Numbered from the stretch's first letter, positions 10,136 through 57,293 are shown. The stretch: 64,000 nucleotides of DNA from Candidatus Latescibacterota bacterium (GCA_963662665.2 CAXXJS010000010.1:224001-288000), one strand, 5' to 3'. Program-made: numbers and translations. The notes: generated by a model not told the origin, from the letters alone.

Positions 10136-10470
10136 GGCGGGCGGGGTGGGATGTGTATGTGCTGACGCTTGTTCAGTTTGCGAAATCTTACATGGATTCA
10201 AGTATTCCGGCGCGAGTTCATCGCGATAGCAGGAGAGTGTACTGCCCGGCGAGACGGATGAATGAAAGATGCTCGGACCACCTTCTACGCCGCAGGAGAT
10301 GCATCGCCAGGCTCCTGGATTTTCGGAGACTGGCACGCATTTTGCGGCCACAAACCCCAAGTACGTCCAGGAGTTTCGGTTTCGCGGCGGAATCTCAGAC
10401 CGGAGGATTTACGATCGGGCAGCCTCGCGAAAAACGCCATTGGGCGCCGCATACTGAAATTGGGTCTTTG

Positions 10471-11418
10471 GCCCCAATTCGAAAAAACAGCAACTCGGCA
10501 ACGAGATGAAAACCACTGAAACGGGGCGTAACGGTCGTCAAAAAGGACATTCTTTCAGTTCACGTCCAGTGACATGGTGTATCCTGTTAATCAGAAGTTA
10601 AATCGCCTTTATCTACTTGCCTAAATTCGGTTTTACTTCCCCGAAGAAGTAGAGTCGAGATGTGGCGCGGTGGTTTAGGAGTGGCCTGTCTGTTCCCGCC
10701 CCTTTCGTCTGGCGGTGCCTCAATAGCCCCTCCCTGCTCCGTTTCCACATCCCGCTCGTCGAACCGGACGTGCGGAGTTACCGCATCCGGCTCTCCGACG
10801 GACATCGCCTTCAGGTACACACTGCCCGATCTGCCCGGACAGCTTCACCTGAAACCTTAGCTTGATCTGGAGTCGCCTCGTCTTATTCTGGAGGAGGTTA
10901 TAGGCTTGCGCCACTCTCCCGACAGTTGTCCCCTTCACAAGCACATCCGAAGTCAGGCCCCTTTCCTCCGCCGGCGTTACCCGGCATCACAGGTACTACG
11001 AGCCTGTCCGCCACCCCATACGGCCCGGCCTGGCCCTCACGGGCTTCCGGTTGGTGGCTCTCCACCACCGCTGGGGCTTCCCGTGTTGCGTCGGATCTCC
11101 TTGTATGCGTGCCTCCGCCATTACCCCGGCGGGACCGTTGGGTGCTCTCGTTGCCTGCTTCCCCAACGACGGCGGCCTTCCCCGTTCGCAAGCCGGGTCG
11201 GCTCCCGCATTACCCTTTTCGAGGCCTGCTCAGCGTTTACTCACGTTTCAGCCCACATACTCGCCGAGTCGCCTGGCGACCCTCTACACCGGAGGCTTCG
11301 GAGATGTCGTTACCTACGTCTCCGCTCCGATTGCTTCCGACTGTGGCAACATCTGTCGGGTGGGACTCTCACCCACTGAAGTTCCGCGCCTTTTCACGGC
11401 GCACTTGCGAATCAAGGT
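10471..11418 (+). mobile_element. MITE family 1, copy A (192 bp: 10471-10648 plus 11405-11418), interrupted by a group II intron
   Basis: Colinear with copies at 23130, 35352 and 40551; joining ...CCGAAGAA|TTGCGAATCAAGGT restores the end seen intact at 35521-35542. Confidence 0.9.
10649..11404 (-). ncRNA. ORF-less group II intron (IIB-like), 756 nt
   Basis: Starts GTGCG and ends CTCTAC; domain V GAGCCGGATGCGGTAACTCCGCACGTCCGGTTC (10793-10761) with AGC triad and AC bulge; long domain VI; domain III-like TAGTACC...GGGTAAC...GGA..AAAGGGGC; EBS1 loop TTGCGAA complementary to the exon end TTCGCAA; no RT ORF. Confidence 0.93.
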
Positions 11419-11506
11419 TAGCCTCTGTCATTATTGCATTTCCCATTGACAACGCGCGATTTTTACTGTTGTTTTAATCAATCGGCGCGAGAAGGGAAAA
11501 ACCGGA

Positions 11507-11872
11507 GTGAAGTGGGTGTCCATCTGGAGCGTCAAGGAAACTGACAGGGTTTTGTTTGGAGTTGTGTCGGTCCTGGTGTTCTTCATTGGTGCGTGGAATC
11601 TGGTTTCCAGAAAGAGCTGGTCCAGCCTTTATTTTTCCGAAGACTTAGTCATTTTGGGCGCCTGGTCGGTCACTGTCGCCTACTTCACAATAGGGGCCAT
11701 TGACATCATGGTTATGATCTTTGGGACTATGACTGAACTTGTGGCCGGATGGTATAAAAACAGGGTTCTCAAAAATGCGCGCGAAGAGATCCGGGAACAG
11801 GTTCGAGAGGAAGTCCTTCAGGAACTTCGGGAGGCCCGGCAGGACAAGACTGATGCGGGTGAAGTAAATTAA
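11507..11872 (+). CDS. Hypothetical membrane protein with two TM segments and a charged helical tail
   Basis: 121-aa ORF, purine-rich sequence before GTG, two hydrophobic stretches, AREEIREQVREEVLQELREAR tail. Confidence 0.65.
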   Translation: MKWVSIWSVKETDRVLFGVVSVLVFFIGAWNLVSRKSWSSLYFSEDLVILGAWSVTVAYFTIGAIDIMVMIFGTMTELVAGWYKNRVLKNAREEIREQVREEVLQELREARQDKTDAGEVN

Positions 11873-11911
11873 ACATCCTGTTCCAATAAACCTGCTCAAC
11901 TGTAACCTCTG

Positions 11912-12032
11912 GTGTTCCGTCCCAGGAATACCTCACCATTCGGACGCCGATTCATCCCGTCTTGCTACGTTGCGTTGCGAGACGGGCGACTCGACGGCCG
12001 AATTCAGGCAACTTATTTCCGGGACAGACCAC
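11912..12032 (+). mobile_element. MITE family 2 (IS630-like ends), copy 1
   Basis: Imperfect TIRs GTGTTCCGTCCCAGGAATA...TATTTCCGGGACAGACCAC followed by TA; homologous to 36872-36987 and 46458-46611. Confidence 0.82.
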
Positions 12033-12034
12033 TA

Positions 12035-13256
12035 GTACCCTTTGACGGCTAAAGCACGGCGTAGTCTGGATACAGCTTTCTCAGTTTGATGCGAGCATCG
12101 TCGGTCGTGAACCGCCAATGGACGGCCTTGCTATTGTTGTTGCGATCATTCGCCCAGGCGGAAGTCTGCTCTTTGAGTGAATCGATATCGGGGATGCGCT
12201 GCTTCAAGCATTGGTTGCTCAAGACACTCAGTTCGATCTCGGCGATGTTGAGCCAACTCCCGTGTTTGGGCGTGTAGTGGATTTCGAGACGCCTGGCCAG
12301 ACGGCGAGCTTCTTCGGGTGAGAACGCCTCGTAGAGTGCCGCGGGCGTGTGCGTGTTGAGGTTATCACACACCAGGACGACGGTTTCGGCTTCACGGTAG
12401 TCCGTATCCAGAAGCTCCTTGATCTCCTGGGCCCAGTCCAGTGCGGTCTTGCGTTGTCTTACACGGACCTTGCGCCAGCACGAAAGCGGTTCAGTGAACA
12501 TGAAGTTCACGGCGGTTCCGTTACGTTCATACTCGTAGTCGTAGCGTTCAGGTTTGCCCGGACGTGTAGTGACCGGAACACGCGTCTCCTTGACCAACTG
12601 AACCGGGTGTTCGTCCATATTGACAACGGGCCTCAGGGCGTCGTACGGCCGCTGATAGACATCCAGGATATCCTCCATCGCGGCGACAAACGCGGCGTTT
12701 TGCTTGGGCGGAATCACCCAGCACGTTCTCAGGTGAGGCCTAAGTTTGTTTTTTTAAGCGTTCGCTGCACCGTCCGGTATGAGATGCTATCGACGATCTC
12801 CAGGGCTACGAGCTCATCGGCCAAAAGCTTCAGCGTCCACCGCTTACGTCCCGTTGGAGGTTCACTGCAAGCCAACGCGATCAATCGGGCTTCCTTAGCA
12901 CCATCCAGCTTTCTTTCGGTGGGAGGATGGGCGCGCTTCTTTCGCTCAAGGGCCGAATCCAGGCCCTCCAACACAAAACGCTTCCGGATGCCCTCAACCG
13001 TAGACCGATTGCACGAAAAGGCCTCCGTGATCTGCCGATCCAGCCAGGCCGGACCCTCTGCATCGGCCTTGAGAAGCACATGCGCGTGCCTGATTCGGTA
13101 CGCTTGCGTCTTGCCTTTGCTTACCAGATCCTGCAGCCGTTCCCGTTCTTCGGGACTCAGACGTACGACGTATTTCTTCGGCATGCCGATGGCTCCTTCG
13201 TCTTCAGGGGAGACATCGAACTATAAGCACGCCCAGTCTTAGAAGTCAATAGGTAC
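12035..13256 (-). mobile_element. IS630 family insertion sequence (two-ORF, frameshifting type)
   Basis: TIRs GTACCCTTTGAC / GTACCTATTGAC, flanked by TA on both sides (12033-12034 and 13257-13258). Confidence 0.92.
12049..13184 (-). CDS. IS630 transposase, OrfA (13184-12729) and OrfB joined by -1 frameshift
   Basis: HTH OrfA; DDE OrfB with MDE, CDNLNTH and HYTPKHGSWLNIAEIE; A7 slippery run at 12755-12749 gives LKKNKLRPHLRTCWVIPP in the -1 frame. Confidence 0.9.
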
Positions 13257-14344
13257 TAGTGTCTTGTCCCATGAATTAGTTCAAAAAGTCTAGTAATCTT
13301 GTCAAGGATCGATTCTGCGGTGGCGGTCCAGACGAACGGTTGTGAGTTGGTGTTGTAATGGTTAGTGAAATCCTGAATGTTGGCGATGAGGTCTTTCACC
13401 TTCTTGAAGGTCCCGCGTCGGATGGCTTTCTGGGTAATGATACCGAACCAGATCTCGACTTGGTTGAGCCAAGACGCGTAGGTCGGTGTGTAGTGAACGT
13501 GATATCGGGGCCTGGCTGCGATCCAGCGTTTGATTTTTTCGTGTTTGTGCGTGGCGTAGTTGTCGACGACGAGATGAATGTCAAGGTCCTTCGGGACGTT
13601 TTGGTCGATATATTTGAGGAATTGCAGGAATTCCTGGTGTCGATGTCGGGGTTTGCATTGGGCCAGCACCTTGCCGGAAGCGACCTCTAGTGCGGCGAAC
13701 AAGGTCGTGGTGCCGTGCCGGATATAATTGTGGGTCACCCCTTCCACATAGCCCAACCCCAAAGGCAATATCGGCTGCGTTCGTTCCAATGCCTGGATCT
13801 GGCTCTTTTCGTCAACGCATAATACCATCGCGTTGTCGGGAGGGTTCAGATACAGGCCGACAATGTCACGTACCTTCTCGACAAAGAACGGATCATTGGA
13901 CAGCTTGAAGTGTTTTTGCCGGTGCGGCTGTAGACCAAACGCTTTCCACACGCGCTGAACCGTAGACTTGGACAGTTGCGTCTGGGCCGCCAGAGAGCGG
14001 CAGGTCCAATGGGTGGCTCCCGACGGCTTGTCTTTGAGCGTTGTATAAATCAGCGCGGCGATGCGCTCATCGCTGATCGACCGGGGCCCCCCGGGGCGCA
14101 ATTCATCATAAAGCCCCATCAGACCTTGTTCTAAAAACCGACGGCGCCACTTCCCGACTGTGGCTCCCGACAGACCAAGCTGTCGTCCAATCTGCTGATT
14201 CGACAGCCCTTGATCACTCATCAGAACGATCTTCGCCCGACGTACATGACTGTGCGACATGCTTCTTGAACGGGAAATCGTTTCCAACTGTGCCCGAACC
14301 TCATCCCCAATACTCAGTGGCGCTAACGGACGTCCCCTGGCCAT
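13256..14344 (-). CDS. IS630 family transposase (single ORF)
   Basis: CVDEKSQIQAL, YIRHGTTTLFAAL, VVDNYATHK, YTPTYASWLNQVE; ends LIHGTRH* inside the terminal repeat. Confidence 0.95.
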   Translation of the reverse strand: MARGRPLAPLSIGDEVRAQLETISRSRSMSHSHVRRAKIVLMSDQGLSNQQIGRQLGLSGATVGKWRRRFLEQGLMGLYDELRPGGPRSISDERIAALIYTTLKDKPSGATHWTCRSLAAQTQLSKSTVQRVWKAFGLQPHRQKHFKLSNDPFFVEKVRDIVGLYLNPPDNAMVLCVDEKSQIQALERTQPILPLGLGYVEGVTHNYIRHGTTTLFAALEVASGKVLAQCKPRHRHQEFLQFLKYIDQNVPKDLDIHLVVDNYATHKHEKIKRWIAARPRYHVHYTPTYASWLNQVEIWFGIITQKAIRRGTFKKVKDLIANIQDFTNHYNTNSQPFVWTATAESILDKITRLFELIHGTRH

Positions 14345-22979: not shown

Positions 22980-23129
22980 CTTTCCAAACCTCCATTGGTT
23001 GAAATTCTCACCAAACACACATCGAGCGCTATTTTAAACCTATATCGGCCGGATCACGGACCCTGTAATCGGGCGCCCTATCGTCGGTACGCCGGCCGAC
23101 CCGCCCCGGGCCGGACGGCGACGAAGTAA

Positions 23130-23322
23130 ACCTTGATACGTAATTCTTCGGGGAAGTAATACCGAATATATGTAAGTGGATAAAGGCGATTTAACTTCTG
23201 ATTACCAGGATACACCAGGTCACTGGACGTGAACTGAAAGAATGTCCTTTTTGCCGACCGTTACGCCCCGTTTCAGGGGTTTTCGTCGCGTCGCCGAGTT
23301 GCTGTTTTTTTCGGATTGGGGT
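23130..23322 (-). mobile_element. MITE family 1, copy B (193 bp)
   Basis: Reverse-complement homologue of copies A and C; ends ACCTTGATACGTAA...TTCGGATTGGGGT; flanked by TAA on both sides. Confidence 0.9.
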
Positions 23323-23339
23323 TAATCCCGGTTTCTGAA

Positions 23340-35351: not shown

Positions 35352-35542
35352 GCCCCAATTAGAAAAAAAGCAACTCGGCAACGCGACGAAAACCCCTGAA
35401 GCGGGGCGTAACGGTCGTCAAAAAGGATATTCTTTCAGTTCACGTCCAGTGACCTGGTGTATCCCGGTAATCAGCCGTTAAATCTCCTTTATCCACTTGC
35501 ATATCTTCGGTTTTACTTCCCCGAAGAATTTCGAATCAAGGT
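35352..35542 (+). mobile_element. MITE family 1, copy C (191 bp, intron-free)
   Basis: GCCCCAATTAGAAA...CCGAAGAATTTCGAATCAAGGT, colinear with copy A. Confidence 0.9.
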
Positions 35543-35570
35543 TAGCCTCGCGAAAAGACGCCCGACCTTT

Positions 35571-36871: not shown

Positions 36872-36987
36872 TCGCATCGCCCGGCTCGCAAGGCGCCTGA
36901 GTGCAGGCGACCTGGGCAGGTCGGCCCAACGTAGCGAGACGGGATGAATCGGCGGCCGAATGGTGAGGTATTCTTGGGACAGGACAC
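36872..36987 (-). mobile_element. MITE family 2, copy 2 (one end missing)
   Basis: Minus strand GTGTCCTGTCCCAAGAATACCTCACCATTCGGCCGCCGATTCATCCCGTCTCGC matches copies 1 and 3; similarity stops near 36872. Confidence 0.75.
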
Positions 36988-37064
36988 CAGGGCATCCTGC
37001 CCTCGAAATCGATACAATCCCAGCCCTGTTTCTCTTCTCAAGCCCAATCAGTCTGTTCGAGAAA

Positions 37065-40496: not shown

Positions 40497-40550
40497 GGAT
40501 TGAACTCCTCATTCAGGCGTAACGTCCACCACGTCGGATATCTGAATTCA

Positions 40551-40743
40551 ACCTTGACTCGAAATTCTTCGGGGAAGTAAAACCGCATATCTGCAAGTAG
40601 ATAAAGACGATTTGACGGCTGATTACCAGGATACACCAGGTCACTGGACGTGAACTGAAAAAACGTCCTTTTGGACGACCGTTGCGCCCCGTTTCAGGGG
40701 TTTTCGTCCCGTCGCCGATTTGCTGTTTTCTTCGGATTGGGGT
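40551..40743 (-). mobile_element. MITE family 1, copy D (193 bp)
   Basis: ACCTTGACTCGAAATTCTTCGGGGAAG...TTCGGATTGGGGT. Confidence 0.9.
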
Positions 40744-40803
40744 CAACGATGAAGGGTTCGACGGCCGTGAACGCGGATTGAACACGTCAACATACGAGGC
40801 CCG

Positions 40804-41853: not shown

Positions 41854-41927
41854 TGGCTGCCCCCCAGGGATTCGAACCCCGATACTACGGTCCAGAGCCG
41901 CATGTCTTGCCATTAGACGAGGGGGCA
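41854..41927 (-). tRNA. tRNA-Gln (CTG)
   Basis: TGCCCCC acceptor stem, CT-CTG-GA anticodon loop, GTTCGAATC T-loop, encoded CCA. Confidence 0.95.
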
Positions 41928-43657: not shown

Positions 43658-43750
<93 letters not shown>

Positions 43751-43910: not shown

Positions 43911-43999
43911 TGGCGGTGGGGGTGGGATTCGAACCCACGGATCCGGTTAGGATCAACGGTTTTCAAGACCGCCACGTTCGACCACTCCGTCACCCCACC
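43911..43999 (-). tRNA. tRNA-Ser (TGA)
   Basis: GGTGGGG acceptor stem, CT-TGA-AA loop, long variable arm, GTTCGAATC, CCA. Confidence 0.95.
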
Positions 44000-46452: not shown

Positions 46453-46457
46453 ACCTT

Positions 46458-46611
46458 GTGTCCTGTTCCGGAAATACCTCACGATCCGTCCGCCGATTCA
46501 TCCCGTCTCGCGCCGTTGCCTTCGCTCGTCGACCTTGCGCAGGTCGGAGGCGCCTGCGAGCCGGGCGACGCGACGGCCGAACGTCGGCGACTTATTTCCG
46601 GATCGGAACAC
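46458..46611 (+). mobile_element. MITE family 2, copy 3
   Basis: GTGTCCTGTTCCGGAAATA...TATTTCCGGATCGGAACAC; shared core GCCGATTCATCCCGTCT. Confidence 0.82.
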
Positions 46612-56715: not shown

Positions 56716-56763
56716 CTCGTGTCCCCTGTCCGTGAAGAGCTTGCTGGCCTCCGAATTCCCTGA

Positions 56764-56922
56764 CAGTCCGTTGATAAAGTCGCTCTGCAGGCGAGGCCGA
56801 GAGATTGTGGCCGAAGACAAGGCGCGCGACCGCGTCGAATCGGGGATTCGGGGAGGAAGCGCAACGCAGTAATTCGGCCACAAGGGCCGGACGCAGCCCG
56901 GATGGACTTTTCCAACGGGCTG
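56764..56922 (+). mobile_element. MITE family 3, copy 1
   Basis: TIRs CAGTCCGTTGATAAAGTC...GACTTTTCCAACGGGCTG; internal TGTGGCCGA...TCGGCCACA hairpin. Confidence 0.82.
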
Positions 56923-57090: not shown

Positions 57091-57133
57091 ATGTGTTTCG
57101 ATTCGAGGGCCGAGCGATGGGAGCGGGCGTTAA

Positions 57134-57293
57134 CAGTCAGTAGATTAAGTCGCTCTGCAAGCGAGGCCGAGAGATTGTGGCCGAAGGCAAGTCGCGCGAC
57201 CGCGTCGGATCGGGGGAATCGGGAAGGGAATGCAACGCAGTAAATCGGCCACAAGGGCCGGACGCAGCCCGGATGGATTTTTTTTGCGGGCTG
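57134..57293 (+). mobile_element. MITE family 3, copy 2 (direct repeat of copy 1, eroded TIRs)
   Basis: AAGTCGCTCTGCA.GCGAGGCCGAGAGATTGTGGCCGAAG...TCGGCCACAAGGGCCGGACGCAGCCCGGATGGA shared with copy 1. Confidence 0.82.

Follow-up and report, generated by a model that had tools for sequence, protein, structure and literature searches.

The window analyzed here, a stretch of 64,000 nucleotides from a Candidatus Latescibacterota bacterium (GCA_963662665.2, CAXXJS010000010.1:224001-288000; C10:224001-288000 in an assembly of 66 contigs and 4.86 Mb), carries on its minus strand a 756-nt group II intron that is devoid of an open reading frame (ORF) and that splits the left inverted repeat of a short, highly repeated element, which we refer to as MITE1 (miniature inverted-repeat transposable element). 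[quoted passage not shown] The selection of targets by pairing between the exon-binding sites (EBS) of a group II intron and the intron-binding sites (IBS) of its exons is textbook knowledge, and our data offer a clean natural example of this known targeting rule with a well-supported mechanism. What our data show are the pairings and their covariation, the number and state of the target copies, insertions that were independent and recent, and IEP genes that are intact.

Four copies of a repeat of about 200 nt are present within the window, and the intron is located 17 nt inside the left inverted repeat of copy A, with the following arrangement:

10468..10648, minus strand: MITE1 copy A, part 3' of the intron (repeat families D2, I3 and I4; alignment)
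11405..11421, minus strand: MITE1 copy A, the initial 17 nt of its left inverted repeat (region of CTAACCTTGATTCGCAA; alignment)
23122..23325, plus strand: MITE1 copy B, empty, site TACGTAA at 23137-23143
35363..35550, minus strand: MITE1 copy C, empty, site TTCGAAA at 35529-35535
40544..40746, plus strand: MITE1 copy D, empty, site CTCGAAA at 40558-40564

When copies B, C and D are aligned to both flanks of the interrupted copy A, 756 nt prove to be inserted between ...TTCGCAA and TTCTTCGGGG...; the alignment with these three empty copies sets the 3' junction at ...CTCTAC|TTCTTCGG, and the 5' end of the intron, GTGCG, begins at position 11404 of the minus strand directly after the exon sequence TTCGCAA (...CTAACCTTGATTCGCAA | GTGCGCC...). 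The MITE1 consensus is approximately 203 nt long and starts with cTAACCTTGATTCGtAA; its right end, taken as the reverse complement, is TTAGCCCCAATTCGAAAA. A comparison of the two ends by eye (TAACCTTGATTCG.AA with TTAGCCCCAATTCGAAAA) gives agreement at about 13 of 16 positions, that is, imperfect inverted repeats of about 16 nt. Genome-wide, at least 71 left ends are present (63 empty and 8 occupied). "MITE" is a fair label for a sequence that is short, occurs in many copies, possesses inverted repeats and leaves no room for a gene. The consensus carries TA both at its start and at its end, and a TA target-site duplication would be possible. The interior of MITE1 contains a terminator-like hairpin (GCCCCGTTTCAGGGG then TTTT), noted by eye on the strand of the intron at about 10510-10535 in copy A.

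The inserted segment is an ORF-less, IIB-like group II intron, and its parts are placed as follows:

10649..11404, minus strand: ORF-less group II intron, 756 nt (Rfam RF02003, 89.7 bits; ends from the alignment with empty MITE copies; BLAST)
10800..10954, minus strand: domain IV remnant, intron 451-605, about 155 nt, found in the ORF-less copies only (BLAST)
10760..10793, minus strand: domain V, a 34-nt hairpin with an AGC triad (RF00029 alignment)
10649..10759, minus strand: domain VI, enlarged by an insertion of about 85 nt (RF00029 alignment; pairing by eye)

The match to RF02003 (group-II-D1D4-4; gathering score 49) extends over 11241-11378 of the minus strand, and the termini GTGCG...CTCTAC fit the 5' GUGYG and 3' AY rule of group II introns. 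All columns that are invariant in an alignment of 52 domain I sequences are preserved. At permissive thresholds, the RF00029 model (domains V and VI) aligns to 10649-10795 with 35.7 bits (E=3.6e-5; gathering score 40); domain V is fully aligned, and the score stays below the gathering threshold because domain VI contains an insertion of about 85 nt. The bulged adenine of domain VI is intron base 750 (window 10655), 7 nt before the 3' end, where the model places its bulge. The insertion in domain VI (window 10649-10759) is also present in the full-length relatives of this intron that are described below. With 756 nt, the intron is too short to encode a reverse transcriptase (RT) and hence has no ORF; an RT/maturase ORF in domain IV, as expected of an autonomous retroelement, is found in the 1975-nt full-length copies only. 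The domain IV remnant has no BLAST match outside the eight ORF-less copies present in the genome. A pairwise alignment shows that it keeps a block, CGGGAGA.TGG....AGCCTA..ACCTCC, in common with a full-length copy, which resembles the surroundings of the IEP start codon there; in Ll.LtrB, it is this region that the IEP binds with high affinity. The intron does not fit the IIC type, which inserts directly after terminator hairpins and has a short IBS1 and no EBS2: no hairpin precedes the site, IBS1 measures 7 nt and a candidate EBS2 is present.

The sequences through which this intron would have found its target are the following:

11181..11197, minus strand: Id3 hairpin CCCG-GCTTGCGAA-CGGG carrying EBS1 (minimum free energy fold and 52-sequence consensus fold)
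11185..11191, minus strand: EBS1 TTGCGAA, intron 214-220 (7/7 Watson-Crick pairs with TTCGCAA; covariation)
11405..11411, minus strand: IBS1 TTCGCAA, formed by the final 7 nt of the 5' exon, within the left inverted repeat of the MITE
11212..11216, minus strand: candidate EBS2 AGGGT, intron 189-193 (pairs with exon -14..-10)
11414..11418, minus strand: candidate IBS2 ACCTT, -14..-10, followed by the 2-nt linker GA (-9, -8) before IBS1
11121, minus strand: EBS3, intron A284 (internal, or coordination, loop of the Id stem; covariation)
10648, minus strand: IBS3, T, the first base of the 3' exon

A preliminary description of this DNA had pointed to the domain I hairpin with the stem CCCG/CGGG and to its loop sequence TTGCGAA as the exact complement of the exon end TTCGCAA, and all seven pairs were found upon checking the sequence. 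TTGCGAA occurs a single time in the intron and is present anywhere in 2.8% of 20,000 shuffled versions of it. The minimum free energy fold of the whole intron presents GCUUGCGAA as a hairpin loop closed by the CCCG/CGGG stem, and an RNAalifold consensus of 52 non-identical domain I sequences likewise places EBS1 in a hairpin loop, with double changes at the two inner closing pairs in 11 and 6 sequences and at the pairs of the enclosing helix in 14, 11, 1 and 20. Both folds thus put TTGCGAA inside the Id3 loop, where the same description had expected it. Relatives were collected with the IEP of a full-length copy (P0001) as the query: 469 of 499 pattern-matched stretches encode relatives, and the best 80, which come from many phyla, were taken. 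Among 84 sequences, which comprise the window and the copies of its own genome, BLAST placed the 5' end of the intron in 64 and its 3' end in 59; the 20 sequences left out have alignments that stop short of the first five bases. In the 51 distinct exon/loop pairs, EBS1 forms on average 5.92 of 7 pairs with its cognate exon (-7..-1) and 3.04 with non-cognate exons; cognate pairing amounts to 4 pairs in 2 cases, 5 in 18, 6 in 13 and 7 in 18. Because of its placement in a hairpin loop in these folds and its covariation with the exon, we identify TTGCGAA, a domain I hairpin loop complementary to the end of the 5' exon, as EBS1. The alleles assigned earlier to the three empty window copies, TACGTAA (B), TTCGAAA (C) and CTCGAAA (D), are correct, but the statement that each is mismatched at -3 has to be amended, as the T of copy B faces G216 and can form a G-T wobble; the clear mismatch of copy B is the A at -6, and copy D is additionally mismatched at -7.

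EBS3 could be assigned as well. In the motif GGGGTA-N-TGG, N (intron base 284) is the sole variable base, and the base that opens the 3' exon is its pairing partner in 39 of 40 distinct relatives (Watson-Crick in 35), as compared with 43% for non-cognate combinations. The adjacent A283 (window 11122) is invariant and pairs in 16 of 40. In the consensus fold, base 284 lies unpaired in the internal loop of the Id stem, as is expected for the coordination loop of a IIB-type intron and for its EBS3. The preliminary description had picked A283, one base off the covarying A284; as both are adenines, the fit to the exon T that it reported is unaffected. The 5-mer AGGGT, a variable stretch preceding a conserved AATG, is a candidate for EBS2: it could form five pairs, one of them G-T, with ACCTT. 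In relatives, this pairing reaches 3.85 of 5 for cognate and 2.91 for non-cognate combinations, a weaker signal than that of EBS1 that leaves its exact extent uncertain. Pairings of EBS1 with IBS1, of the candidate EBS2 with its IBS2 and of EBS3 with IBS3 are all in place, in keeping with an insertion that occurred with intact pairing, as had been suggested from the outset.

Pairing-directed entry is also supported by the distribution of filled and empty sites across the genome. BLAST recovered eight copies of the 756-nt intron, five at 100% identity and three with one substitution (99.87%), together with three full-length copies of 1975 nt and two fragments. All eight ORF-less copies occupy one and the same MITE position, six after TTCGCAA and two (on contigs C8 and C23) after TTCGCTA. 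A BLAST search with the MITE against the genome gave 78 rows of high-scoring segment pairs; the census of empty sites was made by an exhaustive ungapped Hamming scan that allows up to 11 mismatches in 39 positions and leaves left ends that are truncated or contain insertions or deletions uncounted. Among the 63 empty left ends thereby found, 12 read TTCGTAA, 11 TTCGCAA, 7 TTCGTCA, 6 TTCGAAA, 1 TTCGCTA and 1 TTCGCCA, along with others, and 50 of the 63 have no C at -3. Since MITE copies are kin, the following Fisher p-values overstate independence: occupancy is 8/21 for sites with C at -3 and 0/50 for all others (p=1.9e-5), 6/17 for perfect TTCGCAA sites and 2/54 for the rest (p=1.8e-3), 6/17 for TTCGCAA and 0/12 for TTCGTAA with its G-T wobble at -3 (p=0.028), and 6/17 for TTCGCAA and 0/6 for TTCGAAA (p=0.14). 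We propose that only copies with C at -3 were invaded because G216 of EBS1 faces this position.

The genome-wide survey of MITE1 that the preliminary description had called for hence bears out an association of TTCGCAA with intron occupancy. Its further idea, that one polymorphism of the terminal inverted repeat (TIR) sets the susceptibility of a copy, stands as far as the confinement of occupancy to C at -3 is concerned and falls with regard to sufficiency, given that 11 of 17 TTCGCAA sites are empty. The notion that the invaded allele alone pairs perfectly applies to six of the eight occupied sites; in its strict form it is contradicted by the two TTCGCTA sites and by the perfect sites that are empty. 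A match to EBS1 looks necessary, or nearly so, for occupancy; it is not sufficient. With these qualifications, the MITE1 family amounts to a natural, replicated allele series for target choice by a group II intron: 71 target copies that differ in few IBS1 bases, with only matching ones being filled.

Several findings weigh against our reading. The 11 perfect but empty sites, at least seven of which are identical to occupied sites over -15..+24, imply that pairing does not account for which of the cognate sites are filled; two of the eight occupied sites (TTCGCTA) are mismatched at -2; and three of the eight occupied copies fall within a single TTCGCAA-rich clade. To these come the quality of the assembly (66 contigs, 5.4% estimated contamination), the RF00029 score below the gathering threshold, and two matters taken up below, the EBS1 loops of the full-length copies and the lack of contigs that join the exons. 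The census could also be understood in such a way that the -3 polymorphism is a marker, with C at -3 hitch-hiking along while occupancy is set by something else, such as the subfamily of the MITE, its surroundings in replication or transcription, or bases that the IEP reads. Such an explanation would accommodate the empty perfect sites and the fact that the allele is partly clade-structured, and it gains from wobbles at -3 in occupied sites of relatives (L045/L050, L048, L052), in view of which one might have expected TTCGTAA to be usable. We nevertheless regard it as quite unlikely, since the intron is absent from all 50 sites that lack C at -3, each of the five occupied copies not belonging to the TTCGCAA-rich clade has C at -3, EBS1 and exon covary in 51 relatives, and base 216 and exon position -3 change together in sister genomes. 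A bias toward one replication strand, such as endonuclease-less introns would be expected to show, was looked for by means of local GC skew over 30 kb on each side: the intron lies on the G-rich strand at 3 of 8 occupied sites and would do so at 4 of 12 cognate empty sites, no difference by a proxy too noisy in these contigs to carry weight.

The surroundings of the eight introns indicate that they arrived separately. The 185 nt of MITE downstream of the introns are 86-95% identical in pairwise comparisons (mean 91%), whereas the introns themselves are 99.87-100% identical, with at most one base differing in 756. Near-identical introns in diverged MITE copies imply separate and recent entries. 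When 72 MITE copies are placed on a tree, occupied and empty ones are found intermixed at five or more places, and the occupied copy on contig C23 belongs to a diverged MITE subfamily and stands beside an empty TTCGCTA copy. The depth in run X1, 85.6 for an intron-specific segment and 9.3-13.3 for unique flanks, is in line with about eight copies. A single entry into one MITE, followed by the spread of MITE plus intron as DNA through the MITE transposase, would explain why all eight copies share exactly one MITE position, with the allele shared by descent, and why three of the eight hosts belong to one clade. It is difficult to reconcile with MITE bodies that are so much less alike than the introns they contain, with the interleaved distribution in the tree and with the position of the C23 copy; moreover, transposition should be hindered by an intron that interrupts the left inverted repeat at a distance of 17 nt from the end. 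We hold this course of events to be highly improbable.

The three full-length copies (C61:80849-82823, C24:8271-10245 and C16:124183-126157; L001, L002 and L003, respectively) are about 95% identical to the ORF-less introns over intron positions 1-450 and 96% identical over the last 151 nt, and their domain IV is strongly unlike that of the ORF-less form. All three contain an intact ORF of 441 amino acids in which Pfam recognizes RVT_1 and GIIM only, with no nuclease domain, and the genome's IEP matches are these three genes and no others. The genome thus holds what a driver IEP calls for: related ORF-containing introns, in three copies, each with an intact IEP gene. The protein may be class E/F-like, with no distinction drawn here between classes E/F and groups g1-g4. 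Class D (RmInt1-like) was set aside on its C-terminal motif, LX3AX3PXLF[V/A]HW (PMC4615759), which the C-terminus of the IEP (...LGLTRLEAQTRNFPWANA) does not fit in a comparison by eye only.

The EBS1 loops of these full-length copies are the counter-evidence mentioned above. The C61 and C24 copies, one difference apart, have the loop TTTTGGA after the exon TTCGATT, and the C16 copy has AATCGAA after TTCGGAA; all three loops mismatch their own exons at -1 and -2. Hence, pairing is not always kept here, or the loops are mis-phased in the assembly. The fit is swapped: the loop of C16 and the exon of C61/C24 are perfectly complementary, and the exon of C16 pairs with the loop of C61/C24 at 7/7 positions, three of them wobbles. 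Of 19 differences between the C61 and C16 copies, the 9-nt loop accounts for five (binomial p=2e-8) and the ORF for 14, with no change in the remainder of the ribozyme. Possible origins of this exchange are an assembly mis-phasing of the repeat or gene conversion between copies. As a separate observation, L002 (G000:C24:8105-10290) is carried by a MITE1 copy on its bottom strand; the insertion point, GCCTTGATTCGATT|TTAGTCC, is an internal pseudo-site similar to the usual target in the left repeat.

The data presented so far lend themselves to the following scenario for retrohoming. Excised intron RNA would recognize the DNA site through pairing of EBS2 (AGGGU) with ACCTT at -14..-10, of EBS1 (UUGCGAA) with TTCGCAA at -7..-1 and of EBS3 (A284) with the T at +1, and would then insert by reverse splicing. 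As the intron lacks an RT gene of its own, the IEP would most likely be supplied in trans by the three full-length relatives, and splicing of the ORF-less RNA would need the same protein. The IEP has no endonuclease domain, and priming of complementary DNA (cDNA) synthesis would presumably be endonuclease-independent. We infer reverse splicing, the trans action of the IEP, present-day splicing competence and the priming route.

Evidence for splicing at the locus was sought in sequencing runs. Across the window region 10300-11750, no contig that joins the exons over the intron (10648 to 11405) was present in two DNA-type and two RNA runs; the locus consequently gives no sign of splicing or of an allele without the intron, a result that speaks neither for nor against splicing, expression or a particular habitat. 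For the region 10888-11426, the metatranscriptome runs X18 and X20 yielded only pieces of 44-229 nt from related introns, covering domains I-III and differing in letters that include the EBS1 loop; in X20 such pieces occur at high word depth, and nothing from the MITE or its flanks was found in either run. In X18, one contig differs in its EBS1 loop, and a second extends into an exon that ends with ...CATCCATG.

It might be argued that the eight introns are relics of a past burst that no longer splice or move, for instance because the IEP no longer acts on them, so that the pairing is history. The missing ligated-exon contigs, a domain IV far removed from that of the full-length copies, the mismatched EBS1 loops of the latter and the many cognate sites that are still empty could all be read in this manner. 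Yet, with at most one base in 756 separating the eight copies, the burst must have been very recent. Domain V, the bulged adenine of domain VI and the invariant domain I columns are preserved, a segment like the ORF-start region of domain IV has been kept, and all three IEP ORFs are intact. A dead intron is therefore unlikely in our judgment, and retrohoming by an intron that may still be competent remains the reading that we prefer.

The co-evolution of EBS1 and its target can be followed in related genomes. The 756-nt query was matched in 17 of 41 of them (the window's own included), in 16 of 21 from the same family and in 0 of 19 from the sister family. ORF-less copies of 756-819 nt exist in several genomes of the genus, which speaks for an old loss of the ORF. 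We fetched 28 ORF-less copies from related genomes; the 5' end was placed in 27 and the loop was readable in 26, of which 17 pair with their own exon at 7/7 positions (wobbles counted), three at 6/7 and six at fewer. The loops fall into several target families (CATGGAT, TGTCAGC, TGATAGC, GGTTAGC, TGACGAT, TTTCGAA and others). In the genome G006, an ORF-less intron with 22 differences from the window intron in 756 positions carries two of them in the EBS1 loop, including a G to T change of base 216, which faces -3; its EBS1, TTTCGAA, stands after TTCGAAA and is paired at 7/7 positions. Two ORF-less introns of the genome G009 with the EBS1 TGACGAT reside in MITE1-like copies after TTCGTCA and are paired at 6/7 positions. 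In G009, 51 empty sites matched the pattern, most of them TTCGTCA, and this one dominant allele makes the genome unusable as a second test of the association. Judging from these sequences, EBS1 tracks the allele of the local repeat, and the sister genomes show a compensating change in EBS1.

These data invite a further, rather doubtful idea. An insertion would disable the MITE, MITE copies would escape through changes in the repeat bases read by EBS1, and the intron would follow by rapid, selected changes in its 9-nt loop. Such a chase would fit the retargeting by a single base (216, a G in our intron with its TTCGCAA, is a T in G006, where the allele is TTCGAAA), the different loop that matches the dominant TTCGTCA in G009, and the concentration of changes in the loop, which received 5 of the 19 that separate full-length copies (p=2e-8) and 2 of the 22 that separate ORF-less copies from two genomes. 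Were it true, the full-length loops that fit each other's exons could be snapshots of a loop exchange between copies.

Loci L014-L083, which come from many phyla, have a common 5' exon pattern, approximately CTAGCC(C/T)GGA..., at -17..-8. This suggests a single type of target favored throughout the intron clade, possibly the termini of related transposable elements. A second pair of repeats in the window (56763-56845 and 57133-57215) contains an uninterrupted ACAGTCCGTTGATA|AAGTCGCTCT, which is the exact exon junction of the full-length relatives L008 and L009 in other Latescibacterota metagenome-assembled genomes (MAGs). By this sequence identity, ACAGTCCGTTGATA|AAGTCGCTCT in the window would be an empty homing site for an intron type that is absent from the genome.

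Two described systems resemble the one reported here. In Thermosynechococcus elongatus (T. elongatus), TeI4 introns provide the 'driver' IEPs that mobilize ORF-less TeI3 introns (Mohr, Ghanem and Lambowitz 2010, PMC2882425); the ORF-less forms, which have a single domain IV deletion in common, are more numerous in that genome than relatives with an ORF, and families distinguished by their EBS sequences have arisen among them (PMC2882425). In our case, in contrast, the IEP has no endonuclease domain, the host is likely a Latescibacterota MAG and the targets are alleles of one MITE family; the trans action of the IEP is presumed, and the full-length copies of the same genome do not yield the domain IV remnant by a simple deletion. 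RmInt2 of Sinorhizobium meliloti, an endonuclease-less IIB-type intron, homes into the inverted repeats of ISRm17 (PMC4615759). It shares with our intron a target in the terminal inverted repeat of another mobile element and a 2-nt linker at -9, -8 between IBS2, here a candidate, and IBS1, and differs in possessing its own IEP, which is of class D (PMC4615759), whereas our intron uses one inverted repeat of a non-autonomous MITE. A ribozyme of IIB-like type with EBS1, EBS2 and EBS3, combined with an IEP of RT and X domains without the DNA-binding and endonuclease region (D/En), is also described for classes E/F and groups g1-g4 (PMC3552965, PMC4424553). Apart from T. elongatus, ORF-less introns are called rare in bacteria (PMC4424553). 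In a limited literature search we found no paper on the homing of an intron into a MITE; PMC9769881 mentions both terms, separately.

The system is a second case of a proliferating ORF-less intron, phylogenetically distant from the main studied one in T. elongatus; its lineage is uncultivated, and the IEP has no endonuclease. It places one selfish element almost wholly inside another, which limits harm to the host, and its pairings can be used directly for the design of splicing and mobility tests.

Among the other features of the window, two ORFs of the minus strand, 12049-13184 and 13256-14344, lie just upstream of the intron on the same strand, and one is broken into two frames. By their appearance, they may be transposase genes of the IS630 family. 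Repeats at 11909-12032, 36927-36991 and 46454-46611 look like ends of these transposase-like elements. Finally, three tRNA genes (RF00005, 52-59 bits) are located on the minus strand at 41857-41927, 43661-43750 and 43914-43999, two of them with long variable arms.

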